Shown: positions 19,550-63,646, counted from the first letter of the stretch. The stretch: DNA of 64,000 bases from an uncultured Acidobacteriota bacterium (GCA_963805925.1 CAWDWB010000005.1:18247-82246); one strand, 5' to 3'. Numbers and translations: made by a program. Notes: generated from the letters alone by a model not told the origin.

Positions 19550-19879
19550 TTAGGCCTTCGGAGATGGTCCAGAAACCTGCGACAACAACGCCGTATCCGC
19601 GACCGCGCTTTGGATCAGCGAGTCGGCCACTTCGGCGGCCGGTACGTTGAAGCTGCCTGACTGATAGAGCTTTTGGGCCTCGGAGACGGCGGACACGCGT
19701 TCGGGAGACTCCGTCTGCAGCGCCTGGGAGATCTGTTGCGTCAGCGACGAGATGGAGGCGGAGTCTTGGGCGGAGGACGTCTTGCCGCTCCGTTGGGATC
19801 GCGTGTTCTCCGCCTGTTGAGCCTTGTCGATGTGGGTCGATTGCAGATCCGTCGAGGGAGTGAAATTGTCGATCTTCAA
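19550..19879 (-). CDS. flgM: Anti-sigma-28 factor FlgM
   Basis: 109 aa, Ser/Gln-rich. C-terminal ..RVSAVSEAQKLYQSGSFNVPAAEVADSLIQ fits the FlgM sigma-28-binding helices. TTG start with GGAGG 8 nt upstream. Confidence 0.8.
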   Translation of the reverse strand: MKIDNFTPSTDLQSTHIDKAQQAENTRSQRSGKTSSAQDSASISSLTQQISQALQTESPERVSAVSEAQKLYQSGSFNVPAAEVADSLIQSAVADTALLSQVSGPSPKA

Positions 19880-19900: not shown

Positions 19901-19927
19901 CTATCGGCGGATGGCGGCAAAACTTGA
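19901..19927 (-). promoter_or_regulatory. Sigma-28 (FliA) class promoter for flgM operon
   Basis: The minus strand reads TCAAGTTT-N11-GCCGATAG against the consensus TAAAGTTT-N11-GCCGATAA. It lies about 22 nt upstream of the flgM TTG start. Confidence 0.7.
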
Positions 19928-20038
19928 GACCTATCTCCGTCCTACGACCCCAACCCACAGAACCCCAACGACCCGAGCCCAGCCGCGTAAGCGGCGGGCC
20001 TTAGACCCGGGAAGTGCCGCCAAGGGACCGATCCCCGA

Positions 20039-24313: not shown

Positions 24314-25342
24314 ATGCCGTTTGACAAGACCGCCGTCCAACGCCGGGTCAATTTTGGCCTCGTCGGCGATTCCGCCCCGATTCGCAAGCTTCGTGAGACC
24401 ATTCGCAAGCTCAGCAACGACGACTCGACGGTGCTGATCAGCGGCGAGAGCGGCTGCGGCAAGGAACTGATTGCCCGGGCGGTGCACGACGTCTCCGTGC
24501 TGTCGGACAAGATCTTCCTGCCTGTTGACGCCGCCTCCGTCGTGGGTTCGCTAATGGAAAGCGAACTGTTCGGCCACAAGAAGGGCGCCTTTACCGGAGC
24601 GACGGAAGACAAACTGGGTCTGGTCCGCGCAGCTTCCGGCGGCACGCTCTTCCTGGATGAGATTGGCGAGTTGACGCTCGACGTGCAGGCCAAACTGTTG
24701 CGGCTTTTGCAAGAGGGCGAGGTTCGTCCCGTGGGCGCCACGACCGCCGCCAAGGTGAACGTGCGCATCATCGCTGCGACCAACCGCGATCTGGGCGAGG
24801 AGGTGGAGAACGGCCGCTTTCGGCGCGATCTCTACTACCGCTTGAACGTGATCTCGCTCAGAGCGCCGACGTTGCGGGATCGGCCCACGGACATTCCGTT
24901 GCTGGCGGCGCATTTCCTCAAGAAATACGCGGGCCGTAAGGCCGCGTTGTCGTCCGAAGCGCTGGAGCTCTTCTGCCGCTACGATTGGCCGGGCAACGTC
25001 CGCGAGTTGGAGAACGCCGTGCGGCGTTCCGTGGCCCTGCGAGCGGCCGACCTGATTTGCGTCTCCGATCTCCCGAGCGCGCTGCGCAATTTTGCGTTGT
25101 TCGACGGCGATACGGCTAACTTTAGCGAGCAGATCGCGCCGCTCGCCGAGGTCGAGCGCCGCCACATTCTACGGGCCGTCGACCACACCAAGGGCGATGT
25201 GAGCGCGGCGGCGATGATGCTCGGCATTGGCCGCACCACGCTCTACCGCAAGCTCAAGAGCTACGGATCGGACCGCGTGGATTCGGGCCAAAAGCAATCG
25301 CGCTCGGACTGGGGCCAAACCTCCCGTCGAGCCGTCCGTTGA
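24314..25342 (+). CDS. Sigma-54-dependent transcriptional activator (AAA+ plus Fis-type HTH, no N-terminal sensor domain)
   Basis: GESGCGKE (Walker A), ESELFGHKKGAFTGA (GAFTGA loop), GGTLFLDEIGEL, RFRRDLYYRL, and a C-terminal HTH AAAMMLGIGRTTLYRKLK. Only about 25 aa precede the AAA+ core. Confidence 0.9.
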   Translation: MPFDKTAVQRRVNFGLVGDSAPIRKLRETIRKLSNDDSTVLISGESGCGKELIARAVHDVSVLSDKIFLPVDAASVVGSLMESELFGHKKGAFTGATEDKLGLVRAASGGTLFLDEIGELTLDVQAKLLRLLQEGEVRPVGATTAAKVNVRIIAATNRDLGEEVENGRFRRDLYYRLNVISLRAPTLRDRPTDIPLLAAHFLKKYAGRKAALSSEALELFCRYDWPGNVRELENAVRRSVALRAADLICVSDLPSALRNFALFDGDTANFSEQIAPLAEVERRHILRAVDHTKGDVSAAAMMLGIGRTTLYRKLKSYGSDRVDSGQKQSRSDWGQTSRRAVR

Positions 25343-40108: not shown

Positions 40109-40561
40109 TTAGGTGAGGGCGTAAGCGTAAACTTCATGAAGTTTCATTACGGCGCCACGGCGGGTCGCTTCCTCGAACTTCGCATCGCCGAGTGTCTGCC
40201 GGATCCTCGTCGTGGCCTCTGAAAGCTGTGCCACAAACGGATTCGATTCGAAAAGTCTCGCGACGGCGCCATTCAATACCGCGGCAGCGTAGCCATACCC
40301 AAGCCGCTTAAACAAGACGATCAGGCTGCCGATTCCGTGTGAGATTAAGAGGAGATCCGTGGACCTACGCCAGTGGTCCATCATTTGGGAGAAATTCTCT
40401 AAGGCCGCAATCGGATCCATTTGGGTCGCCTGAAGCGCTGCGACTTCCGCTGCCCCCATGGCCTCCCAAAGACGGTTGCCGGACTCGCGTGCGATCGCGA
40501 TAGAGCGCTCATAGGCCGCCGCCATCGCCAGATCGGTGTACGCCCACACGAACGGCGCCAT
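40109..40561 (-). CDS. C-terminal fragment of a large helical-repeat (TPR/ATPase-type) regulator; probably a truncated remnant
   Basis: 150 aa ending ..LGDAKFEEATRRGAVMKLHEVYAYALT*, like the tails of large AAA/TPR regulators. The space where its N-terminal domains should lie is occupied by the opposite-strand MBL gene. Confidence 0.45.
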   Translation of the reverse strand: MAPFVWAYTDLAMAAAYERSIAIARESGNRLWEAMGAAEVAALQATQMDPIAALENFSQMMDHWRRSTDLLLISHGIGSLIVLFKRLGYGYAAAVLNGAVARLFESNPFVAQLSEATTRIRQTLGDAKFEEATRRGAVMKLHEVYAYALT

Positions 40562-40574
40562 CTCGGTGTTGCCT

Positions 40575-41331
40575 ATGCGCGATATCGCCTCCCGGCCATA
40601 GCGCTTGGCGTACCGGTCAACGCCTTTCTGTCGATGGCCCGCGATCCGGTGCTTGTGGACACAGGCATGGCTGCGGATAGCGTCCAGTTTCTGGAGTCGT
40701 TTCGCAACGTCATGGACCCCAAGGACCTCAGGTGGATCTGGTTAACCCATCCGGACCCCGACCATACCGGCAGCCTGCTTGAACTCCTGGAGGAGTCGCC
40801 GCAGGTCAAAGTCATCACGACATTCTTCGGGTACGGAATCCTGGGTCTTTCGAAGCCGTTGCCGCTGGATCGCGTCTACTTCCTCAATCCCGGCCAAGCG
40901 ATCAGCATGGGTGATCGAACCCTGACGGCGGTGATCCCGCCAACATTCGACAGTCCGTCCACAACGGGATGCTACGACTCTCGGTCTGGAGTCTTTTTTA
41001 GCGCGGATTATTTTGGCGCAGTGCTGACGGCGCCGGCTCAGGAGGCCGGGGCGATCCCGAAGGACGACCTCCAGGCGGGTCAGCTCTTGTGGGAGTCCAT
41101 TGATCATCCGTGGATTCGAAAATTGATCGACTGAAACTCGCTGGGGACTTGAATGCCATTCGACGGATGGATCCGCGTTTGATTTTGAGCGGCCATCTGC
41201 CGCCGGCATCCGGTATGACGCGCTCATTTCTCGATACCATGGCCCAATCGCCGGATGCGGCGCCCTACAGCGGACCGGATCAAGCAGCCCTTGAGAAATT
41301 GTTGGCGCAACTAAACGGATCGGAGAGTTGA
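40575..41331 (+). pseudogene. MBL-fold metallo-hydrolase, reading frame broken (one clear, one tentative frameshift)
   Basis: ..VNAFLSMARDPVLVDTG..WIWLTHPDPDHTGSL.. ends at TGA 41132-41134. The next frame (open from 41104) continues ..IDRLKLAGDLNAIRRMDPRLILSGHLPPA.. to 41331. The 5' end is unclear: the ATG 40575 frame is lost at the CCC at 40591-40593. Confidence 0.6.
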
Positions 41332-48418: not shown

Positions 48419-48452
48419 ACGCTAAGTGGCGCATTTTGAGCGGAAATCGGTT

Positions 48453-48468
48453 TGGCCCGTGAGTTGCG
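48453..48468 (+). promoter_or_regulatory. Sigma-54 (-24/-12) promoter candidate upstream of fliK
   Basis: TGGCCCG-TGAG-TTGCG against the consensus TGGCACG-N4-TTGCW, with correct GG/GC spacing. A weaker second match, TGGCGCA-TTTT-GAGCG, lies at 48427-48442. Confidence 0.45.
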
Positions 48469-48481
48469 AAGCTCAGCTCGA

Positions 48482-50419
48482 ATGACAAGCGTTCCGCAAC
48501 TGCCCGTTGAAGCGCCGTCGACGAAGGCTCTCCCAAAAGGCGAGACGCCGCGCGACCGCGCCAACAAGCAAACGGAAGAGGGCGGAGAAGGACTATTCGC
48601 AGCCGTGCTTGCTCAGGCGCTGCCTGAGCGCCAGCAAGCAGCGAAGGCAGCGAAGACGGAACCGACCGCTGAGTCGAAGAGTTCGAAAGTCGGCGGAGAG
48701 GGTATTGCGGCGGAGGATGTGGAGGCGTCTGTTGTAGCCGATACGCAAGCAGCGCCGGCGCCCGGAATCCCGGCCAAGGCGGTGAAGTCGGAAGCGACCG
48801 CGCTAGCCGTCGAGGCCAGGCCGGTTCTTGTGGCGGTGCAGGCCGAGGAAGTTGCCGCTGAGACGCTAACGGAGTTGGGCGAGGAACAGGTGAGCGTTAC
48901 GGAGACGTTGGAGGGTCAGCCTGTTGGCGTCCCTGCTGCAGCGCCCGCTGAGGGAGGCCCGGTTTTGGAAGTCCGGCCCGCAGCTGCGGAGGTTGAGGTT
49001 GACGAGGCGCGGCGGCAGGACCGTACGCAATCCCTAAACAGGCCGCCCTCAACTCCGCGGTTGGAGACGACAGCTGACAAACCGGCAGCGAAATCCCAAG
49101 AAGAGCGGCGACCGACAGAGCGCCCGCAGGAACAGCAGGCGGAGTCGGTACATGCTGATTTGAAGGCGGCTGCCGTGGTGTACGTTGTGGACGCGCCGGC
49201 GCCGGGAGCGGCCCCGGTGCAGGCGGTGCAACCGCCGTGTGAGGTGTCAACCGCGCCGACGAAGACGGAAACGCTGCCCGGTCCGAGGGAGGCCGGCGCA
49301 GGCGCACCGAGGCTTATCGCCGAGACGCCGGGTGCATCGAAGGCTGAGTTGCCAAAGGCGGATGCCCCCCCGGTGATCGAGTTCCAAGTACGCAAGGAAA
49401 CGCCCGCTCAGGAAGTTCTCCAGGAGCCGCAGACTGCGGACTGGGCGAGAGAGATAGAGTCCGAGGCACAGCCGAAAGCCGCGGCGTCCAGCAAACCGAC
49501 GGAGACCCCGGCGAATACAACGCCGCAAAAGGTGACTGGCGCGCCGTCCGTTGAGGCTGTGCCGGTTGCGAAACCAACGGAGAAGGTGGTTGCTATCGCT
49601 GTCGTTGCTGCCCCAGAGCCAGAGCCGGTAAACGCGAAAGAGGACCAACGGGCGCGGCTCAGGCCGTCGGCGGAACACAGCGATGGCCGGCGCGCCGCGC
49701 AGCAGGCGGTTAACGTTGCGCCCCGAGCCGACGTGCGCGAGAAAGACGCTCAAGCGGGGCGCGGCGGATCCGGCGATGTGCAGCGCGCCGGGGATGAGAG
49801 CGTTCAAACCAAGGCGACGCCGAAGCCCGAGGTCGTGAGGACTGAAAATGTTGCCGCCGTTTCCGTCGATCCCGTGGCGGAGCCGGAACGCTCCAAGCAG
49901 GTTGCAGCTAAGCCGACAGCAGTCGCGCAGCCCGCAGCGCAGGCGGCAGTCGGAGAGCGAGCCGCGCCGCTGAACAGCATTCCGCAGGAGGCCTCCGCTG
50001 CTCCTCCGGCTGAAGAGGCGCGTCCCGTGGTTTCGGCCGGCGTCCCGAGGGAGCCGGCGATCAGCGCCGAATTACAGCAAGAGAACAGACGGACAACGCT
50101 GAACGTTGTGCTGCAAGACGAACGGTTAGGACGCGTGGCGTTGCAATTGGTGGAACGCGGCGGCTGGATTGAGACGGCGATTCGGGCCAGCGATCCACGT
50201 ACCGTGCAGCTGCTGTCTAACGGCGCCGCAGGGCTTCTCGAAGCGTTGCAGCATGGTGGCCTATCGTTGGCGGCAGGCAACGGCGCTTCGGCATGGGATG
50301 CGCAAGAAGGCCAACGAAGAGACAACCCCCAACGCGACCAAGAGTCACAGAGAAAGCGGTTCCGGTTGCGTCGGAGCGGCGGAGAATTTGAAGGCGCATT
50401 GGCGCGGGCGGAAGGATAG
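48482..50419 (+). CDS. fliK: Flagellar hook-length control protein
   Basis: Long Ala/Pro/Glu-rich body. C-terminal ..LNVVLQDERLGRVALQLVERGGWIETAIRASDPRTVQLLSNGAAGLLEALQHGGL.. matches the FliK C-terminal domain. The start is uncertain (TTG 48452 or ATG 48482). Confidence 0.75.
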   Translation: MTSVPQLPVEAPSTKALPKGETPRDRANKQTEEGGEGLFAAVLAQALPERQQAAKAAKTEPTAESKSSKVGGEGIAAEDVEASVVADTQAAPAPGIPAKAVKSEATALAVEARPVLVAVQAEEVAAETLTELGEEQVSVTETLEGQPVGVPAAAPAEGGPVLEVRPAAAEVEVDEARRQDRTQSLNRPPSTPRLETTADKPAAKSQEERRPTERPQEQQAESVHADLKAAAVVYVVDAPAPGAAPVQAVQPPCEVSTAPTKTETLPGPREAGAGAPRLIAETPGASKAELPKADAPPVIEFQVRKETPAQEVLQEPQTADWAREIESEAQPKAAASSKPTETPANTTPQKVTGAPSVEAVPVAKPTEKVVAIAVVAAPEPEPVNAKEDQRARLRPSAEHSDGRRAAQQAVNVAPRADVREKDAQAGRGGSGDVQRAGDESVQTKATPKPEVVRTENVAAVSVDPVAEPERSKQVAAKPTAVAQPAAQAAVGERAAPLNSIPQEASAAPPAEEARPVVSAGVPREPAISAELQQENRRTTLNVVLQDERLGRVALQLVERGGWIETAIRASDPRTVQLLSNGAAGLLEALQHGGLSLAAGNGASAWDAQEGQRRDNPQRDQESQRKRFRLRRSGGEFEGALARAEG

Positions 50420-52018: not shown

Positions 52019-52330
52019 TTGGACGAGCCGGAGGAGTCACAGAAGGTTGAGGCGCCGCAAAAGGAAGCAGCGGCCGCGACTCCACCCTCGGAGTTTGATC
52101 GTTTTCGAGACTTGCCCATACGGGCGGCGGTCCATCTGGATCGCCGCCGCCTACTCGTGCGCGAGCTGTTGAGCCTAGAACGCGAGTCCGTGATCCGGCT
52201 GGAGCGGTCTGCCGGGGAGAATGTGGATCTCCTGTTAAACGGGTTGCTTGTCGGCAGCGGGGAGATTGTCGTGATCGACGAACTGGTGGGCCTGCGCATC
52301 ACGGATATTCGCAAGGAAGGTCCCAAGTGA
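52019..52330 (+). CDS. fliN: Small FliN-type switch protein (SpoA domain)
   Basis: ..LPIRAAVHLDRRRLLVRELLSLERESVIRLERSAGENVDLLLNGLLVGSGEIVVIDELVGLRITDI.. . TTG start with GAGGGG upstream. Confidence 0.8.
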   Translation: MDEPEESQKVEAPQKEAAAATPPSEFDRFRDLPIRAAVHLDRRRLLVRELLSLERESVIRLERSAGENVDLLLNGLLVGSGEIVVIDELVGLRITDIRKEGPK

Positions 52331-53358
52331 TCGAATCGATGCCGGCGCTAATCGCCGTCGTCGGCGTGCTCGCGTTTGCGGCGTTTGGGCTGCGGCGCTT
52401 GGAGCGGACCCAACGCCGGGGCCGCTTGCAGGTGATCGAGACGACCGTGCTGGGACCCCAACGAACTGCGGCCGTACTGCGAGCAGGCTCACGGTGCTTC
52501 TTGATTGCCGCCACGAATACAGATATCTCAACGATCGCCGAGTTGGATCCGGCGGAGTGGGAAGGGGAAGTCAAAACCGAGGCAAAGACGAAGCCGATGA
52601 GTGAACTCCTGAGGAGACTCCCGCTTTGGTTGGTGTTGATGGCGATTACGGCGGGCATTGCAGCAGCGCAGGTTCAGTCGCCGACGGCCCCAATTGTGCC
52701 CGACATTCGGGTGATCGATCAACCGCAGCAGATGGGTCTGCCCATGCAGATTCTGTTGCTGATGACGCTGATGACGCTGATTCCGGCGGCGCTGGCATCG
52801 GTGACGCCGTTCCTCAGAATCGTTGTCGTGTTGCACTTCTTGAGGCAGGCGATTGGGACGCAGACGGCGCCCGGAAATCAGACGCTGCTAGGACTGGCGT
52901 TGTTCCTGACGATCGTGTTGATGCAGCCGGTCGCCAATCAGGTTTACGAAGAAGCCGTCGTGCCCGTGCAGCAGGGCAAAATGACGAACTACGAGGGCCT
53001 CGAAGCGGCCAAGGGCCCGGTGAAGCGCTACCTGAGCCGGTTTGTGCGAGAGAAGGACGCGGCGCTGTTTCTCGACATCACGGGTCAGGAACGTCCGAGT
53101 TCGCCGGAGGATCTAGATCTGATTGTCTTGGCGCCGGCTTACATGCTTTCGGAGTTAAAGGTCTCCTTTCAGATTGGGGCGGTGCTGTTTTTGCCGTTTC
53201 TGATTATCGACTTGTTGGTGGCTTCAGTGACGTTGTCGTTGGGCATGATCCAATTACCGCCGGTGATGATTTCGACTCCGTTCAAGCTGTTGCTGTTTGT
53301 GCTGATCGACGGTTGGAACTTGGTGGTTGGTTCGTTGGTGAGAGGGTTCTACGGGTGA
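52327..53358 (+). CDS. fliP: FliO-like N-terminal module fused in frame to FliP (type III export gate)
   Basis: Residues 1-90 have a TM followed by ..LQVIETTVLGPQRTAAVLRAGSRCFLIAATNTDISTIAEL (FliO-like). From the internal ATG 52597 there is a signal-like MSELLRRLPLWLVLMAITAGIAAAQ, then the FliP core ..TPFLRIVVVLHFLRQAIGTQTAPGNQTLLGLALFLT.. . No stop separates the two. Confidence 0.85.
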   Translation: MIESMPALIAVVGVLAFAAFGLRRLERTQRRGRLQVIETTVLGPQRTAAVLRAGSRCFLIAATNTDISTIAELDPAEWEGEVKTEAKTKPMSELLRRLPLWLVLMAITAGIAAAQVQSPTAPIVPDIRVIDQPQQMGLPMQILLLMTLMTLIPAALASVTPFLRIVVVLHFLRQAIGTQTAPGNQTLLGLALFLTIVLMQPVANQVYEEAVVPVQQGKMTNYEGLEAAKGPVKRYLSRFVREKDAALFLDITGQERPSSPEDLDLIVLAPAYMLSELKVSFQIGAVLFLPFLIIDLLVASVTLSLGMIQLPPVMISTPFKLLLFVLIDGWNLVVGSLVRGFYG

Positions 53359-54422: not shown

Positions 54423-55487
54423 GTGGCTGAAGATCGGGCGCAACGAACAGAAGACGCGACCCCTCGACGGCTGGAAAAGGCCAGGGAAGAGGGCCAGGTC
54501 GCCTCAAGCCGCGAGTTGACGATGGCCTTGCAGTTCGCTGCTGCTGTGGGTTTGCTGAGTCTATATTCCGAGCGCGTGGTGCGCGGCGTCATCCAGACGG
54601 CTCGAGGGTTGTTCGAACAGAGTTTTCGCAGAGAGCTAAGTGTTGGCGAGTTGCAGAGTCTCGCCGCGGCGGTCTTGCGGGACGGCATGTCGTTTGTGTT
54701 TCCGCTTGGGTTGTCCCTAGTAGCGATTGGCTTGTTGATGCATTTGGGCCAAACCGGCTTTGTCCTATCGGCGAAGAAACTGACGCCCGACGTCAATCGT
54801 TTGAACCCGTTGGCCAAGCTGCGGGACCTGCCGGGCGAGAACCTGTCGCAAACATTCAAGGCGGCGGTGCTGCTGCCGCTGTTCGCCGTCGTGTTGTGGC
54901 AGATCGTGAGTTCGCGGCTAGACGTCTTCCTGTCACTCGCGGCGATGACGGCTGCGGCGGGAACGGTAGCGGTCTCGCACGCGGTGTTGGATCTGCTGAT
55001 GAAGGCGGCGGTCTGCCTGGTCGTGCTGGGCCTGATCGATCTCTACCGTCAGCGTAGCCGTTTGAGCGGCAAGCTGAAGATGAGCAAGGAAGAGGTGCGG
55101 CGCGAGCATAAAGACCTCGAAGGAGATCCGCACATTAAGGCGCGTATGCGGCGGCTGCGGCGCGAGATGATGCGGCGGCGGATGATGAGCGACGTGCCCA
55201 AGGCAACCGTGGTCATCACCAACCCGACGCATTATGCCGTCGCGTTGCGCTACGAGCCGCAGGGGGCAGCGGCGCCGGTCGTCGTCGCCAAGGGCTTGGA
55301 TCTGATCGCCCTGCGTATTCGCTCCATCGCCGAAGAGCACGGCATCGCCATCGTCGAGAATCCGCCGCTGGCGCGCACGCTCTATCGCTCCGCGGAGATC
55401 GGTACAGAGATCCCCGAAGACCTCTATCGCACGGTGGCGGAGATCCTAGCGTACATCTACAGCCTGCGCGGCCAGCGGCCGTTCTAG
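54423..55487 (+). CDS. flhB: Flagellar export switch protein FlhB
   Basis: MAEDRAQRTEDATPRRLEKAREEGQV.. N-terminus and the NPTH autocleavage site (VVITNPTHYAVALRY). Confidence 0.92.
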   Translation: MAEDRAQRTEDATPRRLEKAREEGQVASSRELTMALQFAAAVGLLSLYSERVVRGVIQTARGLFEQSFRRELSVGELQSLAAAVLRDGMSFVFPLGLSLVAIGLLMHLGQTGFVLSAKKLTPDVNRLNPLAKLRDLPGENLSQTFKAAVLLPLFAVVLWQIVSSRLDVFLSLAAMTAAAGTVAVSHAVLDLLMKAAVCLVVLGLIDLYRQRSRLSGKLKMSKEEVRREHKDLEGDPHIKARMRRLRREMMRRRMMSDVPKATVVITNPTHYAVALRYEPQGAAAPVVVAKGLDLIALRIRSIAEEHGIAIVENPPLARTLYRSAEIGTEIPEDLYRTVAEILAYIYSLRGQRPF

Positions 55488-55517
55488 GGACGAATAGGGG
55501 AGCTATTAAAGAATTCG

Positions 55518-55546
55518 TTGACAAGCCGCGGAGCTGGCGTTATGCT
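55518..55546 (+). promoter_or_regulatory. Sigma-70-type promoter for the BlaI/BlaR1-like pair
   Basis: TTGACA-N17-TATGCT. The -10 ends 24 nt before the repressor ATG. Confidence 0.55.
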
Positions 55547-55547
55547 C

Positions 55548-55567
55548 ACTACGTATTCGTTAGTAGT
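55548..55567 (+). promoter_or_regulatory. Inverted repeat (candidate BlaI-family operator)
   Basis: ACTAC-N10-GTAGT, lying between the -10 hexamer and the ATG at 55571. Confidence 0.35.
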
Positions 55568-55570
55568 CAA

Positions 55571-55954
55571 ATGGCGCGCAAGAAATCCACCACCCTTACC
55601 GATGTCGAGCTGCGGTTGATGAACGTCCTGTGGGAGCAGGGCCCGTCGACAGTCAGCGACGTGCAGAAGGCTCTGCCGAAGAAGGAACGGGCAGCCTATA
55701 CGACGGTGCTGACGATGCTGCGCATTTTGGAGGACAAAGGCTATCTGGAACACGAGCAGAACGGCCGCGCCTTTGTGTATAAACCGCTGGTCGGCAGGGA
55801 AGCGGCGCAGCGCAGCAGCGTCTCGCACCTGGTCGGCAGACTATTTGACGGCTCGCCGGGTGCGCTGGTTTTGAATGTGCTGGAAAACGAGGAACTGACG
55901 CCGGATGAGTTGGCGCGGTTGCGCGAGTTGATCGCCAAGGCGGAGGAAGCATGA
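55571..55954 (+). CDS. BlaI/MecI/CopY-family winged-helix repressor
   Basis: ..LTDVELRLMNVLWEQGPSTVSDVQKAL..AYTTVLTMLRILEDKGYLEHEQNGRAFVYKPL.. . Confidence 0.88.
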   Translation: MARKKSTTLTDVELRLMNVLWEQGPSTVSDVQKALPKKERAAYTTVLTMLRILEDKGYLEHEQNGRAFVYKPLVGREAAQRSSVSHLVGRLFDGSPGALVLNVLENEELTPDELARLRELIAKAEEA

Positions 55955-57752
55955 GCGGCTTGCCGGTGGACGCACTGTTTGAAGCGCTGGCGAATGGGCT
56001 GTGGCGCGGGAGTCTGTTGGCTGTCGTCGCAGCGGTCTTGATGCGCCTGTTCAAGAGAACGACTGCCGCCGAGCGATACGCCGTGTGGTTGGCGGTGTTG
56101 ACAGTGATCGCGCTAGCGCCCGTCACCGAAGCGTTGCTGAGTTGGGCGCGGCCGGCGGCGCCGCCGATGGCCATCATGCTGACGAGCACAAGTGGGGTTG
56201 AGACTGCGATGCCGGCGCCGATCGAAGCGCCGCAGCAGTGGGAAGCCTTGGCGCTATCGGGTGGTCCCTTCTTATGGCTGTGGAGTTTTGTGGGCCTTGC
56301 GCTGGTCGTGCAGCTGTGTCGGCGATGCACGCTGGCCGCCAGGCTCAAACGCAACGCTTTGCCGCCGGATATCGACTTGACGGCAGCGCTGGAGCAATGG
56401 GAAAGCCGGCTCGCTGCCAGCCGCGTGGGGTCCACGCGGGTCACCAGAAGCCTGCGCTCACCGGCCGCGGTCGGCTGGCTCGAACCGGCTGTGTTGCTGC
56501 CCGACGATGCGCAAGCAAGTGCGGACAGCAAGGATCTGGAGATGTTGTGGCGGCACGAGCAGGCGCATGTCGCCCGCCGGGACGACTGGACGCAGTTGAT
56601 TTCTGAATGTCTTTTCGCCCTGGCTTGGTTTCATCCGGCGGCCCACTGGGTACGCCGACAGCTGGAAAGAGAAAGAGAACTTGCCTGCGACGAGACTGTG
56701 GTTAACAGCGGCGTCGAAGCTGGGCTCTACGCGGGCGCCCTGGGTAGGTGGGCGGAGCGAGCGACAACGAACGAGTTAGCGGTTGGCGTGATGGGTTTGG
56801 GGCGCTCGCCCGCGCTGATTATTAGGAGAATCGAAATGTTATTGTCGCCATCTAGAATTCTTCGCCGAAGCGTCGGCCGCTGGGCGTTTACCGGAAGTCT
56901 GGCCGCCGCGCTTGGCGCATCTTTCTTGCTGACGGTCAGCGGACCGCTGGTCATCCGCGCTCAGTCGGTCGATGTGCCTTTGGACATTGAGGTAGAAGCT
57001 CCGGTGTCGGTTGCCGTGGAGCCCGTGTTGGCCAACCCGGTTGTTCGAGTAGCGCCGGTTGATCTAGCGCTCGACATGGACCTCGAAGTTCCGGTATCCG
57101 TAGTCGTCCCGACAGTAGATGTGGAGCCGATGCTGATGAGCCAGGCCGTTCCGCCCGCACCCCCGGCTCCTCCCGCTCCGCGGCCATCTCCAGTCCCTGC
57201 GCCGGCTGCGGTTCCTGCGCCTCCTGTTCCGCCGGCTCCTGCCTGGTGCCCCCGGCAAGATCGCGGCGCGCGGCGGTCAAGCGCGAAGAGTCGGCAAAGG
57301 CCATGGCAGAATACACGAAGCGTTGGCGCGAAGAGATGCAGCCGCAAATCGCGGCGATTCAACGTGAGGCGCAACGCATTCAAGAGGAGATGCAGGCCAA
57401 GATGGGCCCGCAACAAGAGAAGATCAAGATCTGGCGAAAGCGATGGCCAAGGAGCATGCCAAGTCGATACAGCCGCTGGCCAAAGAGATGGGTAAGCTGG
57501 GTGCGCAGATGGCGCAGGCAAGCGGGGCGCAACGCGAAGAACTAGCGGCCAAGATGGAAGCTCTCGCCAAACAGATGGAGGCGAAGCAGCCGGAGTTCCG
57601 TCGGCTGGAAGAAGAGATGTCCAAGATTCAGATCGACATGGCGCCGATCGAAGAAAGGATGAAGGAGTTGGAGAAAGGGACTACACGAGAAGGAGCTGGC
57701 GCTGAAAGAGGCCCAACGGAAATTCCAAGAGTCCGTCCAGCCGGCGCCTTAG
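55951..57752 (+). CDS. BlaR1-like M56 peptidase membrane sensor with Pro-rich linker and Met-rich coiled-coil tail (tail spread over three frame changes)
   Basis: N-terminal TMs and the HExxH site (WRHEQAHVARRDDW). The uninterrupted ORF ends at 57495, but after ~57240 its sense is Arg-rich junk, while coiled-coil sense continues in other frames to the TAG at 57750-57752. Confidence 0.8.
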
Positions 57753-57785
57753 AACCTAAACAAACGTTCGGGTTCCGTCGATAGA

Positions 57786-57820
57786 ACCTGACGCTCCGAG
57801 TTGCGGCTCGGAGCTCAGGT
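57786..57820 (+). promoter_or_regulatory. 14-bp GC-rich hairpin ending 2 nt before the flhA ATG; contains the flhA Shine-Dalgarno sequence
   Basis: ACCTGA-c-GCTCCGAG / TTGCGG / CTCGGAGC-TCAGGT, followed by TT-ATG. GGAG (57810-57813) sits in the 3' arm. Confidence 0.6.
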
Positions 57821-57822
57821 TT

Positions 57823-59868
57823 ATGACGCCCCCTCCCAGACTGGCCGGACACGCGGGACTCAACGCGATCGTGCCCGCGGCCATCATGGCCGTGGTGCTA
57901 ATGATGGTCCTGCCGATCCCGCCGCTGCTGCTGGACCTGCTGATCTCCTGCAACATTACGCTCTCGGTCGTCACGGTCATCGCCACGATGTATATCGAGC
58001 GGCCGGTCGAGCTGAGCGTCTACCCGTCGTTGCTGCTGCTGCTGACTCTGTTGCGGCTGGCGCTCAATATTTCATCGACGCGGCTGATTCTGATGAACGG
58101 CCAAACCGGGGCGGGAGCGGCCGGAGACGTCATCGAAGCCTTTGGAGACTTCGTCGTCGGCGGTAATTTCGTCGTCGGCATCGTCATCTTCATCCTGTTG
58201 ATCGCCATCCAGTACGTGGTTATCAACCACGGCGCCGTACGCATCTCCGAAGTCACAGCCCGCTTCACATTGGATGCTTTGCCGGGCAAGCAGATGGCCA
58301 TCGATGCCGATCTGAACGCCGGGCTGATCGACGAAGGAGAGGCTCGCAACCGGCGCGAAGCGGTCTCGCGTGAGGCGGAGTTCTACGGGGCGATGGACGG
58401 TGCTGTGCGCTTCACTCAGCGCGATGCGGTCGCCAGCATTATCATCACCTGCGTCAACATATTGGCCGGGTTCCTGATCGGGGCGTTGTCCCACGGCATG
58501 CCGATCGAACAAGCGCTGGAAACCTACACGGTGCTGACGGTCGGCGACGGTCTGGTCACGGTCATTCCGGCCTTGTTGATCTCGGTGTCGGGTGGCATCA
58601 TCACCACGCGCGCGGCGGGAGAAAGCAGCCTGGGCGTCGATTTTGGGAAGCAGTTGTTCGGGCGTCCGGAGCCGCTGATGTTGGCGGCCGGAGTGATGGG
58701 CTCGCTGGCCGCTGTGCCGGGGCTTCCCGCAGCGCCTTTCCTACTGCTGGGCGGCGGAGCCGCGACGGCGGGCTGGCGGCTGAGGAAGCAGGAGAAATTA
58801 CTGCCGAGCGCGGCGCCGCAACTCACCCAGCCGAAAGAACCGGAGAACGTCGAATCGCTCCTGCGCATCGAGCCGTTGGCTATCGAAGTCGGCTTGGGCT
58901 TGGTGAAGATCGTGGACTCTTCACAAGGCGGTGCGCTGCTGACGCGAATCGCCGGAGTCCGCAGGCAATTAGCGCAGGAGTTGGGCTTTGTGCTGCCGCC
59001 TGTGCGCGTGACGGACAACCTGCAACTGAAGCCGCGCGAGTATGTGGTGCTGCTGAAAGGCATGGAGATCGCGCGTTTTGAGCTGTACTCCGACTCCGTG
59101 TTGGCCATCAAGGCCGGACACGCCAACGGAGTGATTGAAGGGGTGCCGTGCAAGGAGCCTGCGTTTGGCCTGGACGGTTTGTGGGTGCCGCAGGAGCAAT
59201 CGGACAAAGCGCGGCTGCTGGGTTACACGGTGGTGGATGCGGCCAACGTGGTCGCCACTCATCTGACGGAGTTGATCCGGCGGCATTCGCACGAGCTATT
59301 CACGCGGCAGGATGCCGATGGTTTGTTGCAGCGAATCAAGGACGAGAACCCCAAGTTGATCGAAGACTTGGTGCCGCAGTTGATGTCGCTGTCGATCGTG
59401 CAGAAGGTGTTGCAGAATCTTCTGCGCGAGCGTGTGTCGATCCGCGACGCGGTGTCGATTCTGGAGGCGCTGTCGGAAGCGGGCTCGGCGACGAAGAATC
59501 CGACTTTGTTGACCGAGTATGTCAGGCAGGCACTGGGGCGCAGCGTCGTACGGCCGTATCTCGACGACAACGGCGACCTGCCCGCCTATCTGCTGGGTCC
59601 GTCCCTGGAGTCGCTATTGCAGGCCGGAGTGGAACACAACGAGCAGGGCTCGCGGCTGACGATGGATCCCGCCGCACTGGGAGAAGCGGCAAGACAGATC
59701 AAGAAAACGGTGGGCGAGTTGCACGGTCCCACGGCGCTGGTCTGCTCGTCTTCGGTGCGCTTTGCGGTGCGGCAGTTGGTGGAAAGCGATATGCCTCTGC
59801 TGGCGGCGATCTCCCACGCCGAGGTTCCTGCGACGGTGCGAGTCGTGTCTTTGGGGGCGGTGGGTTAG
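57823..59868 (+). CDS. flhA: Flagellar export apparatus protein FlhA
   Basis: ..MVLPIPPLLLDLLISCNITLSVV..FVVGGNFVVGIVIF..TARFTLDALPGKQMAIDADL.. and a cytoplasmic C-terminal domain. Confidence 0.95.
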   Translation: MTPPPRLAGHAGLNAIVPAAIMAVVLMMVLPIPPLLLDLLISCNITLSVVTVIATMYIERPVELSVYPSLLLLLTLLRLALNISSTRLILMNGQTGAGAAGDVIEAFGDFVVGGNFVVGIVIFILLIAIQYVVINHGAVRISEVTARFTLDALPGKQMAIDADLNAGLIDEGEARNRREAVSREAEFYGAMDGAVRFTQRDAVASIIITCVNILAGFLIGALSHGMPIEQALETYTVLTVGDGLVTVIPALLISVSGGIITTRAAGESSLGVDFGKQLFGRPEPLMLAAGVMGSLAAVPGLPAAPFLLLGGGAATAGWRLRKQEKLLPSAAPQLTQPKEPENVESLLRIEPLAIEVGLGLVKIVDSSQGGALLTRIAGVRRQLAQELGFVLPPVRVTDNLQLKPREYVVLLKGMEIARFELYSDSVLAIKAGHANGVIEGVPCKEPAFGLDGLWVPQEQSDKARLLGYTVVDAANVVATHLTELIRRHSHELFTRQDADGLLQRIKDENPKLIEDLVPQLMSLSIVQKVLQNLLRERVSIRDAVSILEALSEAGSATKNPTLLTEYVRQALGRSVVRPYLDDNGDLPAYLLGPSLESLLQAGVEHNEQGSRLTMDPAALGEAARQIKKTVGELHGPTALVCSSSVRFAVRQLVESDMPLLAAISHAEVPATVRVVSLGAVG

Positions 59869-59880
59869 GAGTTCGACGCC

Positions 59881-61032
59881 ATGCGATTGAAAACTTACAA
59901 CGCCGACAGCGTACAAGCCGCATTGCGGTTGGCGCGGATTGAGTTGGGGGACGATGCCGCGCTGATTGGTTCGACGGAGAACCCCAAAGGGGGTTCCGGG
60001 GCCAAGCTCAGCGTGACGTTCGGCACGGATCTCTCCGGCGCGGAGGTCGAACCCATCGCCGAACCGGCGCCGGCGCAGCCGGGGGCCGGCGCGGCGCTCC
60101 AATCGTTGCCGGACGAACCAGTGTTAGAGGAGTTGCGGAGGTTGCGCAGTGATCTCGACTGGATGCGCAACAGTCCGCGGCAAAGCGGCGCGGTGGAGTC
60201 GGCCTTCACTCCGGTGTTCGAGAACAAACTAGTGGGCCAACTATTTGTGCGTTTGGTGACACGCGGCGTTTCTCCGGCGCTGGCCGCGCGACTGGCCGCG
60301 GAGTTGGAGGCGGGCGCGGAGCCGGACGCTCCCTACCACGCGCTGATGGAGCGCCTCTATGCGCGGGTGCGCTCGATGTGGAAGATTCGCGACGATCCGA
60401 CATCGGCGGCGCAATCCCCGCAAACCGTCGCCGTGGTCGGGCCTGCCGGCGCGGGCAAGACCACTACGCTGGCCAAGATCGCAATCTCCGTGGGCTTCGC
60501 TCGCGGGCGTTCGATCGGATTTGTCTGCGTCGACCCGTTCCGGGTGGGCGGCGTGGACCACCTGGAGGCCTATGCCGGGCTACTGGACGCGCCGTTGCGA
60601 TTGGTCGATAGACCCGAAGACTTGTCGGCGGCCGTCAATGAGATACGAAGCGGCAACGATGTCCCCGACCTATTGCTGTTGGATACGGCGGGATATCCCT
60701 TGCGCGACGTCGGCAGACAACGGTCGCTGCACGACGGACTGCGCCAATGCGGAGCGGCGGACGTCCACCTTACGCTGAATGCGACGAGTCGTCCCGAGGA
60801 CATCCGGCGCGGCTACGACGCCTTTGGCGCGTCAGCGAACAGTCTGATTTTTACCCGCCTGGACGAAGCTTCGGCCCCTGGTTCGCTATTGGACGAAAGT
60901 TTACGATTCGGATTGCCGATTGCCTATGTGACGACTGGCCAAAGGACAGCGCAAGACCTTTCCCCGGCCGACCGCGATGAGCTGACGATGCTCGCGATGG
61001 GCGGAGCGGATGTCGAGCCGGCTTTTGCCTAG
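59881..61032 (+). CDS. flhF: Flagellar biosynthesis SRP-type GTPase FlhF
   Basis: VAVVGPAGAGKTTTLAKIA (G1), LLLDTAG (G3), ..IFTRLDE.. (G4-like). Confidence 0.88.
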   Translation: MRLKTYNADSVQAALRLARIELGDDAALIGSTENPKGGSGAKLSVTFGTDLSGAEVEPIAEPAPAQPGAGAALQSLPDEPVLEELRRLRSDLDWMRNSPRQSGAVESAFTPVFENKLVGQLFVRLVTRGVSPALAARLAAELEAGAEPDAPYHALMERLYARVRSMWKIRDDPTSAAQSPQTVAVVGPAGAGKTTTLAKIAISVGFARGRSIGFVCVDPFRVGGVDHLEAYAGLLDAPLRLVDRPEDLSAAVNEIRSGNDVPDLLLLDTAGYPLRDVGRQRSLHDGLRQCGAADVHLTLNATSRPEDIRRGYDAFGASANSLIFTRLDEASAPGSLLDESLRFGLPIAYVTTGQRTAQDLSPADRDELTMLAMGGADVEPAFA

Positions 61033-61046
61033 CGACGCAACACACG

Positions 61047-61802
61047 GTGATGTACCCCAAACCCACACTTGCCGCGCCAACCGATCTGGCCGAGAGGCCT
61101 GAGCGGGACCAGCGTATTCTCGAACACCTTGGTCAGGTCAAACTCATCGCATCGCGCATCCATGACAAACTGCCCCAGAGCGTTTGCCTGGACGACTTGA
61201 TCAGCGCGGGCGTCTTGGGTCTGATCGACGCGGTGGACCAGTTCGACGAAACATTGAACGTCAAGCTGAAGACCTACGCCGAACACAAGATTCGCGGCGC
61301 CATTCTAGATAGTTTGCGAAGTCTGGACTGGGCTCCGAGGAACAAGCGGCGTAAGTCGAAGCAGATTGAGGCCACCATCGGATCGTTAGAGACAACACTC
61401 AAGCGGAGCCCGACTGAGGACGAAGTCGCCGCCCAACTCGGAATCACATTGGATGAATACCGGCGCTGGTTGGTGGAGATTCGAGGAATCAACTTAGCGC
61501 CGATGGAACAAGGTCCGACAGGGGACGGAGAGGGCTCCAGCGTGTTGCGCTTCGTTTCCGATGACGAGGATGAGTGGCCCTCCGCTCTGCTGGAACAGTC
61601 TGAACTTCGCCGGGTGGTGGCCGAACTTATCGCCAGGCTGCCGGAAGTCGAGCGGACCATCATTACGCTGTACTACACGAAGGAATTCACGCTGCGCGAG
61701 ATCGCCAAGGTCGTAGACCTACATGAAACACGGGTGTCCCAATTGAAGTCCCAGGCGATTCTGCGGCTGCGTTCAGCGATGCATATGAAATGGCCCCGCT
61801 AG
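61047..61802 (+). CDS. fliA: Flagellar sigma factor sigma-28
   Basis: ..LISAGVLGLIDAVDQFD..KLKTYAEHKIRGAILDSLR.. (region 2) and ..FTLREIAKVVDLHETRVSQLKSQAILRLR (region 4). Confidence 0.9.
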   Translation: MMYPKPTLAAPTDLAERPERDQRILEHLGQVKLIASRIHDKLPQSVCLDDLISAGVLGLIDAVDQFDETLNVKLKTYAEHKIRGAILDSLRSLDWAPRNKRRKSKQIEATIGSLETTLKRSPTEDEVAAQLGITLDEYRRWLVEIRGINLAPMEQGPTGDGEGSSVLRFVSDDEDEWPSALLEQSELRRVVAELIARLPEVERTIITLYYTKEFTLREIAKVVDLHETRVSQLKSQAILRLRSAMHMKWPR

Positions 61803-61814
61803 GTATCGAACATC

Positions 61815-62792
61815 ATGCGCAGCGCACTCAGCCAAGACGAGATAGATCGCCTCTTCACCAATCAGGGCGGCATGGCGACACAGGGCGCCCCGGGGCACAC
61901 GGCGACGGTTTACGATTTCCGCCGGCCCGATCGCATTCCCAAGGACCAGGTCCGTGCTGTACACCTGGTCCATGATTTTCTGTCAAGAAATCTCGCGGCA
62001 TCGCTTGGCGCCTATCTGCGCAGCTATGTGACGGTCAGCCTGGTGTCGGTGGAACAGTTGGCCTTCGGCGAGTTCTTAGGGTACTTGCCGACCCCGACTT
62101 GCATTGCCCACGTCGGGGTGAAGCCGATGGAAGGCAACGCCGTATTGGAGATCAACCCCTCCCTGGTTTTGCCGATGCTCGATATCGTTCTGGGCGGAGA
62201 CGGCAAACACAGCGCCGATCAAGCCAAAGAACTGACCGACATTGAGCAGAGCGTGATGGAGACGATCTTCCGTATCGTGCTCAACGATCTGCGAGACGCC
62301 TGGTCAACGACGCGGGACCTATCGTTTGCCGTCGAAGATACCGAGACGCAGCCCCAGTTGATGCAGATTCTCTCCCCGAATGAAGCGGTCGTGGCGATCG
62401 GATTTGAGATCACGGTGGATAACGCCCGGGGCATGATGAACTTTGGCGTTCCCTCCGTCATGGTCAAGATGATGGGCCAGAAGCTGGAGCAACAGTGGTC
62501 CGTCAAAAAACAGCCGGGCGACACGCGGCCCACGCGGCGCATGGAGTCGTTGCTGCGGGATATACCGGTACCGGTCGAGTCGAGAGTTTCGGGAGGCAAC
62601 TTGACGGTAAGAGAAGTCCTCGACCTAGCGCCGAACGACATTCTTTCATTGGGTACGCCCATTACCCGGCCGACGGAAGTCTCGGTCAGCGGCGTGAACA
62701 AGTTTGCTGCCCGAGTCGTGGCCGCAGGCCGACGTCGCGCATTTCAAGTTCTGGCTGATGATTCCAGTCCGAACGGAGGGAATCCAACGTGA
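61815..62792 (+). CDS. fliM: Flagellar motor switch protein FliM
   Basis: N-terminal CheY-P binding motif LSQDEIDRLF, a middle domain, and a C-terminal SpoA-like ..LTVREVLDLAPNDILSLGT.. . Confidence 0.9.
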   Translation: MRSALSQDEIDRLFTNQGGMATQGAPGHTATVYDFRRPDRIPKDQVRAVHLVHDFLSRNLAASLGAYLRSYVTVSLVSVEQLAFGEFLGYLPTPTCIAHVGVKPMEGNAVLEINPSLVLPMLDIVLGGDGKHSADQAKELTDIEQSVMETIFRIVLNDLRDAWSTTRDLSFAVEDTETQPQLMQILSPNEAVVAIGFEITVDNARGMMNFGVPSVMVKMMGQKLEQQWSVKKQPGDTRPTRRMESLLRDIPVPVESRVSGGNLTVREVLDLAPNDILSLGTPITRPTEVSVSGVNKFAARVVAAGRRRAFQVLADDSSPNGGNPT

Positions 62793-63646
62793 GCGGCGCG
62801 GAACGGTGGAAAAAGAGCCGGACCGAACACTGGTTCACGGCGGCTTGGGCGGAGGGAGCGTGCAAGGCCCTCGCGCTGTTGAACCCTGCGGCGGGCGAAT
62901 TCGCGCTGGAAGCCCGCGATCCGCAGCCGCAGAATTGGGGCGCCTGGACTGAGCCTGTTTGGATCGTCTTTACCTGTGATATCGCCGCAGCGGCAGGCGT
63001 TTCGGTGGGCTGTTCCCGCGAAGTCTTACAGAAGATGGGAAGGCTGGCGCTTGGCGACCCCGAGGATGCTGATGGCCTCGCGGCGGAAACGTACCGCGAG
63101 TTGATCTCCCAGGCCATCGCGTCGGTCGGGGCCGCACTGCGGAACCAGTCGGTCGCCCAGGCGCGGTTCGCCGTCGGCGTCGATGTTGCCGAGCCGTCGG
63201 ATGAATCGCTGGCAGTAGAGTTCTGGTTCGAGATTGACGGAGAGAAATGCAGCATCGCGTTGGTCCCGAATGCGTCCTTCCTGGAAGCGCTCCTCGGCGA
63301 TTCGAATGGCGGGGAGACCGGCGCCAAAGGGGAACTCGAGAGCGCGGAGGAACCTCCGCCCGCCGAAGGTCTGGGAGGAGCCGCGCGACGCAATCTCGAG
63401 ATGTTGCTGGATCTGGAAATGGAGGTCGCCGTGAGTTTTGGCCAGACCGAGATGTTGTTAAACGATGTTCTCAAGCTAACGGTTGGCTCCATCGTTGAGT
63501 TGCAGTGCCAAGCATCGGATCCGGTTGAGGTGCTCGTCAACGACACCGTGATCGCGCGCGGGGAAGTGGTCGTGGTCGACAGTAACTACGGAGTGCGTAT
63601 CACGGACGTGAGCAGCCGTCGGGAGCGGATCCAAAGCATCCTCTAA
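62789..63646 (+). CDS. Large FliN/FliY-like switch protein (unassigned ~200-aa N-terminal region + SpoA domain)
   Basis: C-terminus ..LEMEVAVSFGQTEMLLNDVLKLTVGSIVELQCQASDPVEVLVNDTVIARGEVVVVDSNYGVRITDV.. . The GTG start overlaps the fliM stop. Confidence 0.8.
   Translation: MSGAERWKKSRTEHWFTAAWAEGACKALALLNPAAGEFALEARDPQPQNWGAWTEPVWIVFTCDIAAAAGVSVGCSREVLQKMGRLALGDPEDADGLAAETYRELISQAIASVGAALRNQSVAQARFAVGVDVAEPSDESLAVEFWFEIDGEKCSIALVPNASFLEALLGDSNGGETGAKGELESAEEPPPAEGLGGAARRNLEMLLDLEMEVAVSFGQTEMLLNDVLKLTVGSIVELQCQASDPVEVLVNDTVIARGEVVVVDSNYGVRITDVSSRRERIQSIL

Follow-up and report, generated by a model that had tools for sequence, protein, structure and literature searches.

A BlaI/M56 repressor–protease pair at the boundary of two flagellar operons in a Bryobacterales subclade

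A stretch of 64,000 nucleotides (nt) from an uncultured Acidobacteriota bacterium (GCA_963805925.1, CAWDWB010000005.1:18247-82246) carries, between the flagellar export genes flhB and flhA, a gene for a BlaI-type repressor followed by a gene for an M56 (BlaR1-like) membrane metalloprotease. The whole stretch, with a G+C content of 61.8%, is called the window here, and all positions are counted along it. We propose, with moderate confidence, that the pair is an autonomous, self-repressed module at the boundary of two flagellar operons and that flhA is transcribed mainly from a sigma-28-type promoter of its own. A conserved sigma-70-type promoter belongs to the pair itself, with an operator-like dyad over the expected transcription start, and the pair has been inherited in place throughout a subclade of Bryobacterales. 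An earlier note on this DNA had suggested that the pair gates flagellar transcription; such control is possible but unsupported.

The pair, its promoter and its inheritance

Four genes stand in a row on the plus strand: flhB (54423-55487; Pfam PF01312, E 1e-112), the repressor gene, here called blaI (55571-55954, 127 amino acids (aa); PF03965, Penicillinase_R, E 3e-35), the M56 gene (55951-57752 after the repair described below, called open reading frame (ORF) 55951-57495; PF05569, E 1e-28) and flhA (57823-59868; PF00771, FHIPEP, E 5e-247). Pfam thus bears out the earlier note's placing of a BlaI-family repressor and an HExxH-bearing M56 gene between flhB and flhA. The repressor gene comes first, and its ORF overlaps that of the M56 gene by 4 nt. 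flhB is the last gene of the upstream export operon, fliK-flgD-flgE-fliN-like-fliOP-fliQ-fliR-flhB, and a terminator scan finds no terminator-like site 3′ of it. On the other side, flhA opens the flhA-flhF-fliA-fliM-fliN operon (57823-63646, plus strand; genes assigned with Pfam).

The promoter of the pair (55503-55546, plus strand) is made up of an A/T-rich block, CTATTAAAGAAT, a -35 hexamer TTGACA (55518-55523), a 17-nt spacer and a -10 hexamer TATGCT (55541-55546). The promoter scan gives TTGACA-N17-TATGCT (55518-55546) 10 of 12 consensus matches, and its count of such sites is no higher than chance (2 in 8 kb versus 1.7 expected), so that the weight of the call rests on conservation. The -35 is invariant in seven loci (the window, L001, L002, L003, L175, L177 and L165), and the -10 reads TATGCT, TATCCT, CATGCT or TACTCT across loci. 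Between the -10 and the blaI ATG lies the dyad ACTACGTATTCGTTAGTAGT, i.e., ACTAC-N10-GTAGT (55548-55567, plus strand), in a position that covers the expected transcription start of blaI. It is the sole copy in the 64 kb, even when three mismatches are allowed on the full 20-mer (0 expected), and no second copy is found near the other flagellar promoters of the window, a search that covers flgM, flgF-I, fliK and flhA. Written as a search pattern, the operator is ACTACGTATTCNTTARTAG. In every orthologous locus the dyad is conserved as ACTACGTATTCNTTA(G/A)TAG, and it occurs only 5′ of blaI. The 70 nt 5′ of blaI, comprising CTATTAAAGAAT, TTGACA, the -10 and the operator, are nearly invariant, though synonymous sites differ by 0.7-1.5. 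Both the strong sigma-70 promoter and the dyad at the operator position, as read by the earlier note, are therefore in place. As in BlaR1/BlaI and MecR1/MecI, the putative operator overlaps the promoter of the pair itself. The half-sites differ: ACTAC/GTAGT here, TACA/TGTA in the BlaI/MecI operators.

The repressor matches PF03965 over profile positions 1-114 of 115 (E 3.3e-35), and MecI (1sd6) matches its residues 5-123 (E 8e-12). Its layout is that of a winged-helix N-domain with a C-terminal dimerisation helix. The scissile site of S. aureus BlaI/MecI is N101-F102. By alignment only, LVLN|V in the repressor corresponds to the scissile LVLN|F, with the Asn kept and Val at P1′. The repressor falls below the NCBIfam equivalog cut-offs for BlaI/MecI/CopY proteins, scoring 64.4, 41.2, 27.5 and 72.7 bits against 180, 250, 250 and 121.95 for NF012168, NF000243, NF000186 and TIGR02698, respectively. 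The CopY/TcrY model TIGR02698 is the best of the NCBIfam models (E 3e-20), yet its score too is under the cut-off; the repressor contains no cysteine, and so lacks the CopY metal site CxCx4CxC, and it is partnered by a protease, whereas CopY has no protease partner. The ratio of non-synonymous to synonymous divergence (dN/dS) of blaI is 0.02-0.09, as low as that of flhA, and purifying selection on BlaI is as strong as on FlhA.

Whether the insertion is conserved in related Acidobacteriota, a question raised by the earlier note, has a positive answer. The order flhB-blaI-M56-flhA is found in seven further contigs (the P0003 contig, L001, L002, L003, L175, the P0007 contig and L177) with FlhA proteins 86-95% identical to that of the window, and flhF-fliA-fliM-fliN also follow wherever the contig reaches. 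With the window included, the pair is in the same place in 8 of 8 loci whose FlhA is at least 86% identical. Identities to the window in L001, L002 and L003, respectively, are 94, 94 and 86% for FlhA; 90, 90 and 76% for FlhB; 95, 93 and 79% for BlaI; and 59, 49 and 48% for the N-terminal region of the M56 protein. Between the window and L001, synonymous divergence (dS) is 0.65 for flhB, 0.69 for blaI and 0.72 for flhA. The agreement of blaI with its neighbours indicates that the pair has co-diverged with them in place. For the same comparison, dN/dS is 0.041 for blaI, 0.048 for flhA and about 0.2 for the M56 N-domain.

A side observation is that dS rises along the module: against the L165-type pair described below, from 0.34 in blaI to 0.62 in the M56 N-domain and 1.7 in the C-terminal domain; against L001, from 0.69 to 1.67 and then saturation, with the flagellar neighbours near 0.7. 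The rise could be explained by recombination among sensor alleles, by weak codon bias or by a methodological artefact.

The gene order outside the clade is different. An FlhA search returns a tight clade at 87-100% identity, then one protein at 75%, then many at 60-73%, the last labelled Bryobacterales, Bryobacteraceae or Acidobacteria by their sources. In the nearest outgroups on long contigs, L176 (FlhA 75%; GCA_942492705.1) and L178 (72%; a 6.9-Mb contig), flhA-flhF-fliA-fliM-fliN follows unrelated genes on the opposite strand, and neither flhB nor the pair is there. The same five genes are present in all orthologous and outgroup loci. A panel of distant FlhA loci came from a contig scan in which the matches listed comprise only relatives of at most 51% identity, the close clade not included. 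Among these matches, which include metagenome-assembled genomes of Terriglobia and Holophagales, flhB mostly adjoins flhA, without the pair. Thus, the statement that flhB and flhA are normally adjacent is true of nearly all of 80 distant FlhA loci and fails in the two nearest outgroups examined. Judging from these gene orders, flhA heads an operon of its own in this family, and in the window clade the pair sits in the gap between two flagellar operons.

The pair is also found without flagellar neighbours. Twelve contigs (L165-L174) have a BlaI identical to that of the window at 125 of 127 residues, the same promoter and operator, and an intact M56 protein of 595 aa; in these the pair lies 3′ of a gene for a TonB-dependent receptor and 5′ of EAL and PepSY genes on the other strand. 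The dS of blaI between the window and the L165 type is 0.34, closer than L001. In L165 and L167 the nucleotide similarity to the window begins 27 nt inside the 3′ end of flhB (55461), and in L166 a 35-nt fragment after the M56 gene is 91% identical to flhA codons 21-32 (57884-57918). These vestiges of flhB and flhA point to descent of the L165-type loci from a flhB-blaI-M56-flhA locus. Deletion of the flanking flagellar genes would be the ready explanation, and copying of the segment to another place seems less likely. The retention of an intact pair without flagellar neighbours indicates that its role is not confined to flagella. The junctions themselves vary: relative to L165 (4417-5000), L166 (2759-3424; 5592-5666) has about 82 nt more to the left of the promoter and the vestigial flhA fragment on the right, and in L165, L167 and L168 the EAL gene is directly 3′ of the M56 gene. 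Such differences among the non-flagellar strains suggest stepwise deletion.

The M56 protein, its sensor domain and its frame shifts

The match of the M56 protein to PF05569 (E 1.2e-28) runs over profile positions 14-296 of 296, and S. aureus BlaR1 (8exs) matches its N-terminal part (E 2e-6). The zinc-binding and catalytic motif, HEQAH (H202-E203-H206; 56554-56568, plus strand), is invariant in 10 orthologues (alignment A3), as is a downstream ERELACDE block that holds the presumed third ligand, E243. A profile scan of metagenome contigs with the M56 alignment finds only paralogues of at most 42% identity; RELACDE and RRIEMLLSP are shared family-wide. The last transmembrane helix (about residues 313-335) and the hypervariable Val/Glu/Pro-rich and Pro-rich linker after it together occupy 56887-57250 (plus strand). 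The linker region has many indels in the alignment and shows no nucleotide similarity to L165 over 56964-57402. For the orthologue P0002, an AlphaFold2 model built with 12 sequences has residues 313-342 as a predicted helix, 343-413 as disordered and three long helices at the C-terminus; the mean predicted local distance difference test (pLDDT) score is 57.6, and the model is confident only for the C-terminal helices (pLDDT 76-91).

These helices belong to the C-terminal sensor domain, which after repair of the reading frame occupies 57273-57749 (plus strand); its roughly 160 residues make a series of amphipathic helices punctuated by prolines, with repeats like those of apolipoproteins. Similarity to apolipoproteins A-I and A-IV is weak: PF01442 matches with E 2.5e-6 to 3e-3, below its cut-off, and the profile matches to apolipoproteins in the PDB reach 5e-4. 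When 1.84 billion protein representatives were scanned in full with HMMER, just 48 clusters matched the domain at E ≤ 1e-3, and the 10 further sensor-domain matches tested are all M56 proteins. That scan replaced a word-indexed search with the sensor-domain alignment, which gave one match, its candidates probably swamped via coiled-coil words. No penicillin-binding sensor domain is found; the blaR1_generic model scores 51.7 bits against a cut-off of 400 and covers model positions 21-253 of 585. Thus, the cue is unlikely to be a beta-lactam. On sequence and modelling grounds, the M56 protein appears to have a rare, helical, apolipoprotein-like sensor that is not of the penicillin-binding type.

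The comparison with known systems is instructive. In BlaR1/BlaI and MecR1/MecI of Staphylococcus and Bacillus licheniformis, as here, a PF03965 winged-helix repressor is joined with a PF05569 membrane zinc protease; the HExxH motif is at almost identical residue numbers in BlaR1; and BlaR1 likewise has a transmembrane helix after the protease domain and then a C-terminal extracytoplasmic sensor. The window pair differs in that the repressor gene comes first and overlaps the protease gene, the sensor is helical, punctuated by prolines and placed behind a Pro-rich linker instead of being a penicillin-binding domain, the P1′ residue of the repressor is Val rather than Phe, and no resistance gene adjoins. 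The same architecture, i.e., M56 domain, transmembrane helix, Pro-rich linker and variable periplasmic domain together with a BlaI gene, is found in BlaR1-like M56 proteins whose C-termini are not penicillin-binding proteins, such as TonB_C and CarboxypepD_reg fusions. In contrast to this wider M56 family, the present C-terminal domain is rare, and the orthologous group is fixed at the flagellar locus. To our knowledge, the signals and targets of the family without penicillin-binding domains, common in Acidobacteriota and Bacteroidota, are uncharacterised.

The M56 reading frame of the window is intact to about 57250, and the remainder is readable only after repair of three 1-nt indels in the last 500 nt. 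As called, the product has 514 aa, the last 85 or so of them out of frame, rich in Arg and without any match; the helical Glu/Lys/Met-rich peptide continues in two other frames. The frame does not stay intact to 57822: the called ORF ends at 57495 in a shifted frame, and the conserved domain continues to the repaired stop codon at 57750-57752. The repaired product of 600 aa matches full-length orthologues of 571-651 aa at 44-67% identity and 98-100% coverage and aligns end to end with nine intact orthologues; orthologue lengths are 565-651 aa. The first indel is in the C5 run at 57249-57253, with the shift within 57243-57255; in a three-frame translation the peptide passes from frame 1 to frame 0 (start modulo 3), where AKAMAEYTKRWREEMQP matches AKAIAEYTKRWREEVQP of P0002. 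The second site (57424-57425), GAGAAGAT-CAAG, is one base shorter than in L165, L177 and L001 (DNA alignment A9, column 51), and at the third (57674-57676) there is one extra A, GAGAAAGGG versus GAG-CAGGG (column 307 of the same alignment). All three are given on the plus strand, and the second and third are directly seen in the DNA alignment with these three intact orthologues. Programmed frameshifting was considered and rejected: there are three sites, none of them conserved, and the gene is in a single frame in all orthologues. Either the gene was inactivated very recently or the assembly is locally in error here. In annotation caution is needed, as the gene is called as a 514-aa protein.

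A further split M56 gene was seen on L004, a 146-kb contig. Here, at 667-2440 and in a non-flagellar context, a BlaI (63%) is paired with an M56 paralogue whose sequence is divided between two overlapping ORFs of 431 and 174 aa. The break comes directly behind the Pro-rich linker, where the window has its first indel.

The promoter and leader of flhA

A candidate sigma-28-type promoter precedes flhA: CTAAACAA-N12-GTCGATAG at 57756-57784 (-10 at 57777-57784, plus strand), identified by motif and conservation. The sigma-28 consensus is TAAAGTTT-N11-GCCGATAA. As criteria for such a promoter we used TAAA(GTTT)-N11-GCCGATAA, with 15 nt between TAAA and GCCGATAA, a flagellar gene behind it and a genome with FliA; the FliA of the window passes the FliA/WhiG model TIGR02479. 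The flhA motif, which also reads CTAA-N17-GTCGATAG or TAAA-N16-GTCGATAG, resembles sigma-28 promoters in both boxes, with a spacer 1 nt longer than the canonical 15. A generalised form, CTA[A/T]-N17-[G/A][C/T]CGAT[A/G/T][G/T], with fixed spacing and a variable spacer sequence, is present in 8 of 8 loci, among them L176 and L178, which have no pair. Its occurrence in these outgroups suggests that the flhA promoter is older than the pair. We infer that flhA has a sigma-28-type promoter of its own that predates the insertion.

An in-genome reference is available in flgM (19550-19879, minus strand; PF04316, E 2.5e-7), whose promoter, TCAAGTTT-N11-GCCGATAG (19901-19928), reads TCAA-N15-GCCGATAG and is near-canonical; the flhA motif resembles it. 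The strictly canonical TAAA-N14-17-GCCGATA has no match in the window, and the flhA and flgM sites emerged only with a relaxed pattern. On the same strand as flgM there are flgK (17216-19222) and a flagellin-fold gene, probably flgL (15668-17212). A second TAAA-N15-GCCGAT match is at 40309-40333, about 90 nt 5′ of the longest ORF of a metallo-beta-lactamase-fold gene (40421-41134); chance may explain it, as two such matches occur in 6 of 100 shuffles.

The arrangement recalls Bacillus subtilis, in which sigD closes the fla/che operon and a promoter dependent on sigma-D lies upstream: here too fliA lies in an operon behind a TAAA...GCCGATA-type motif, which implies autoregulation. It is also like class III control by FliA/FlgM, in that the window has flgM with a canonical sigma-28 promoter. 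In contrast to both, the first gene of the operon is flhA, which belongs to the export gate and is usually 'early', the spacer of the promoter has the extra nucleotide, and a strong leader hairpin abuts the start codon.

That hairpin, AACCUGA-C-GCUCCGAGU/UGCG/GCUCGGAGC-UCAGGUU, extends over 57785-57821 (plus strand; -26.1 kcal/mol, z = -5.9), and its stem ends 1 nt 5′ of the flhA AUG. With no T-run behind it, it is passed over by the terminator scan, and it does not qualify as an intrinsic terminator: only 1-3 U follow or overlap the stem, and in L175 the stem is followed by CUAUG. The hairpin abutting flhA that the earlier note describes is thus present, and a canonical terminator is lacking. 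Every clade member has a stem-loop of -12 to -29 kcal/mol in its flhA leader, stopping 1-5 nt short of the AUG. Among these leaders the outer stem AACCUG/CAGGUU is kept, and the inner stem varies (GCUCCGAG in the window, GGCUCCGG in L002, GACCCCGGC in L175 and CCC in L177). We rely on single-sequence folds because the MAFFT alignments given to RNAalifold have the arms misaligned and the covariation counts are weak. A search of the whole window against Rfam returned no match, so the hairpin is in no described RNA family.

The 5′ arm of the outer stem starts immediately 3′ of the flhA -10 box. RNA made from the sigma-28-type promoter would begin about 7 nt past that box; it would lack the 5′ arm AACCUGA and leave UCAGGUU-AUG free for ribosomes. 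Read-through RNA from blaI-M56 would have both arms and bury the ribosome-binding region of flhA. In the simplest reading, the hairpin would insulate flhA translation from upstream read-through, rather than couple the module to flhA.

Several other features of the flagellar region are recorded here. FliO and FliP form a single fusion protein of 343 aa (52327-53358; PF04347 and PF00813 in orthologous loci), and just 5′ of it a FliN-like protein of 103 aa is encoded (52019-52330); both the fusion and the small FliN-like gene are kept in all related loci. The FliK-like hook-length protein (48452-50419, 655 aa) has a very long Ala/Pro/Glu-rich N-terminal region, and its PF02120 match is limited to residues 541-607. 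Since only about 33 nt separate the divergent flgF and fliK starts as called, one of the two start codons is probably miscalled. Between two flagellar regions, at 24314-25342, there is a gene for a 342-aa sigma-54 activator (AAA+ and HTH_8) without a receiver or sensor domain; the sigma-54 promoter pattern has 23 matches in the window versus 28 expected, i.e., no signal.

Mode of action and relation to flagella

By analogy, the pair most likely works like BlaR1/BlaI, through signal-dependent proteolysis of a self-repressing dimer. BlaI dimers, bound to the dyad, would keep blaI-M56 silent. The C-terminal helical domain, tethered by the Pro-rich linker, would receive a periplasmic cue that activates the cytoplasmic zinc-protease domain, which in turn would bring about cleavage of BlaI near LVLN|V and de-repression of the module. 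These steps are modelled on BlaR1/BlaI and MecR1/MecI. As flhB has no terminator behind it, polymerases from the upstream flagellar operon probably run on into the module and transcribe it as well. The anatomy of the locus suggests that flhA-flhF-fliA-fliM-fliN would be transcribed mainly from the sigma-28-type promoter.

Two other accounts of the pair can be given. One is that a BlaI/M56 paralogue, of which acidobacteria have many, was inserted here by chance in a single strain, its relation to the locus not being under selection; the earlier note had considered a chance insertion plausible. BlaI/M56 pairs are indeed abundant in these genomes, with many distant paralogues in unrelated contexts, such as the one on L004. 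The identical synteny in seven other contigs and a blaI dS equal to that of the flanking flagellar genes refute a strain-specific event, and even the non-flagellar loci have remnants of flhB and flhA around the pair; we regard this account as extremely improbable. The other is that the M56 gene of the window is a true pseudogene without a sensor domain, leaving BlaI as an unresponsive self-repressor with no further role. Three 1-nt indels crowded within 57243-57676 favour it, since the 13 flanking flagellar genes (~15 kb) match their L001 orthologues in length to within a few residues and UvrA (956 aa), RecA, FlgK and FlgI are full length, as are all other window genes examined; the out-of-frame, Arg-rich end of the called product is a further point for it. 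Against it, the repaired domain has 14 synonymous versus 7 non-synonymous changes on the window branch, compared with 6 versus 13 on the L165 sister branch, an absence of non-synonymous excess that gives no sign of relaxed constraint. In addition, the repaired frame has no in-frame stops and every other orthologue is intact, all three indels are in short homopolymers, and the split of the L004 paralogue at the same place hints at a systematic assembly error in C-rich sequence. On balance, a pseudogene seems unlikely.

The proposal of the earlier note itself was that a signal leads to BlaI cleavage and that read-through from the blaI promoter via the M56 gene then drives flhA-flhF-fliA or primes the positive feedback of sigma-28. 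Some of the evidence speaks for this and weighs against the module we prefer, in which flhA is served by its own promoter. The two units have the same orientation, and the position of the pair is kept in 8 of 8 flagellated clade members, so that a functional link may exist. No canonical, U-tract terminator separates the M56 gene from flhA. In L175 the M56 stop codon is inside the -35-like element of flhA, which means that polymerase coming from blaI must enter the flhA leader. The sigma-28 assignment of the flhA promoter is one of motif similarity, with the longer spacer, and an flhA-fliA operon with sigma-28 as its only recognisable input needs a priming source, which read-through from the pair could supply. 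The note had held that an independent flhA promoter with full termination after the pair would tell against its proposal. Of these, the sigma-28-like promoter motif has been found and the canonical terminator has not, so read-through may occur.

Other evidence leads us to consider gating by the pair improbable. The flhA promoter motif is older than the pair and is present in outgroups that lack the pair. On read-through RNA the hairpin would pair up to 1 nt before the AUG, occluding the flhA start, and 2 kb of untranslated flhA would leave the RNA open to Rho. The operator has no second copy in the 64 kb, a stretch that covers flgM, flgF-I, fliK and flhA. The sister lineage keeps an intact pair where the flanking flagellar genes are gone, and the window has a complete, intact set of flagellar genes beside a frameshifted sensor gene. 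A bolder version, which we think more doubtful still, would have BlaI/M56 ignite a bistable flagellar switch: BlaI is cleaved in response to a periplasmic cue sensed by the apolipoprotein-like domain, the first flhA-flhF-fliA transcripts arise by read-through from the strong blaI promoter, the sigma-28 promoter amplifies them, and the hairpin sets the threshold. The cue in such a switch might be the state of the membrane or its lipids, surface contact or an assembly intermediate. In agreement with the earlier note, which knew of no described link between this family and flagellar assembly, our search of a literature library found no paper linking BlaI/BlaR1 or M56 proteins to flagella. If true, the bistable switch would be the first link of a BlaR1-type proteolytic sensor to flagellar assembly.

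The pair belongs to the broad BlaI/M56 family and stands out in it by an unusual sensor domain and by a conserved genomic position that is new. Such pairs are very numerous in Acidobacteriota and Bacteroidota, and almost none has a known signal or target. The orthologous group described here is tractable, having a fixed position, an extremely conserved repressor and operator, and a fast-evolving, rare helical sensor. It also offers natural 'experiments': in one lineage the pair has outlasted its flagellar neighbours, and in one genome the sensor may be gone. Should the pair prove to act on flhA-fliA, a proteolytic envelope sensor would join the inputs already known for flagellar hierarchies. 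Otherwise, the locus illustrates how an inter-operon gap, a sigma-28 promoter and a hairpin that occludes the ribosome-binding site can insulate a foreign transcription unit within a flagellar cluster.

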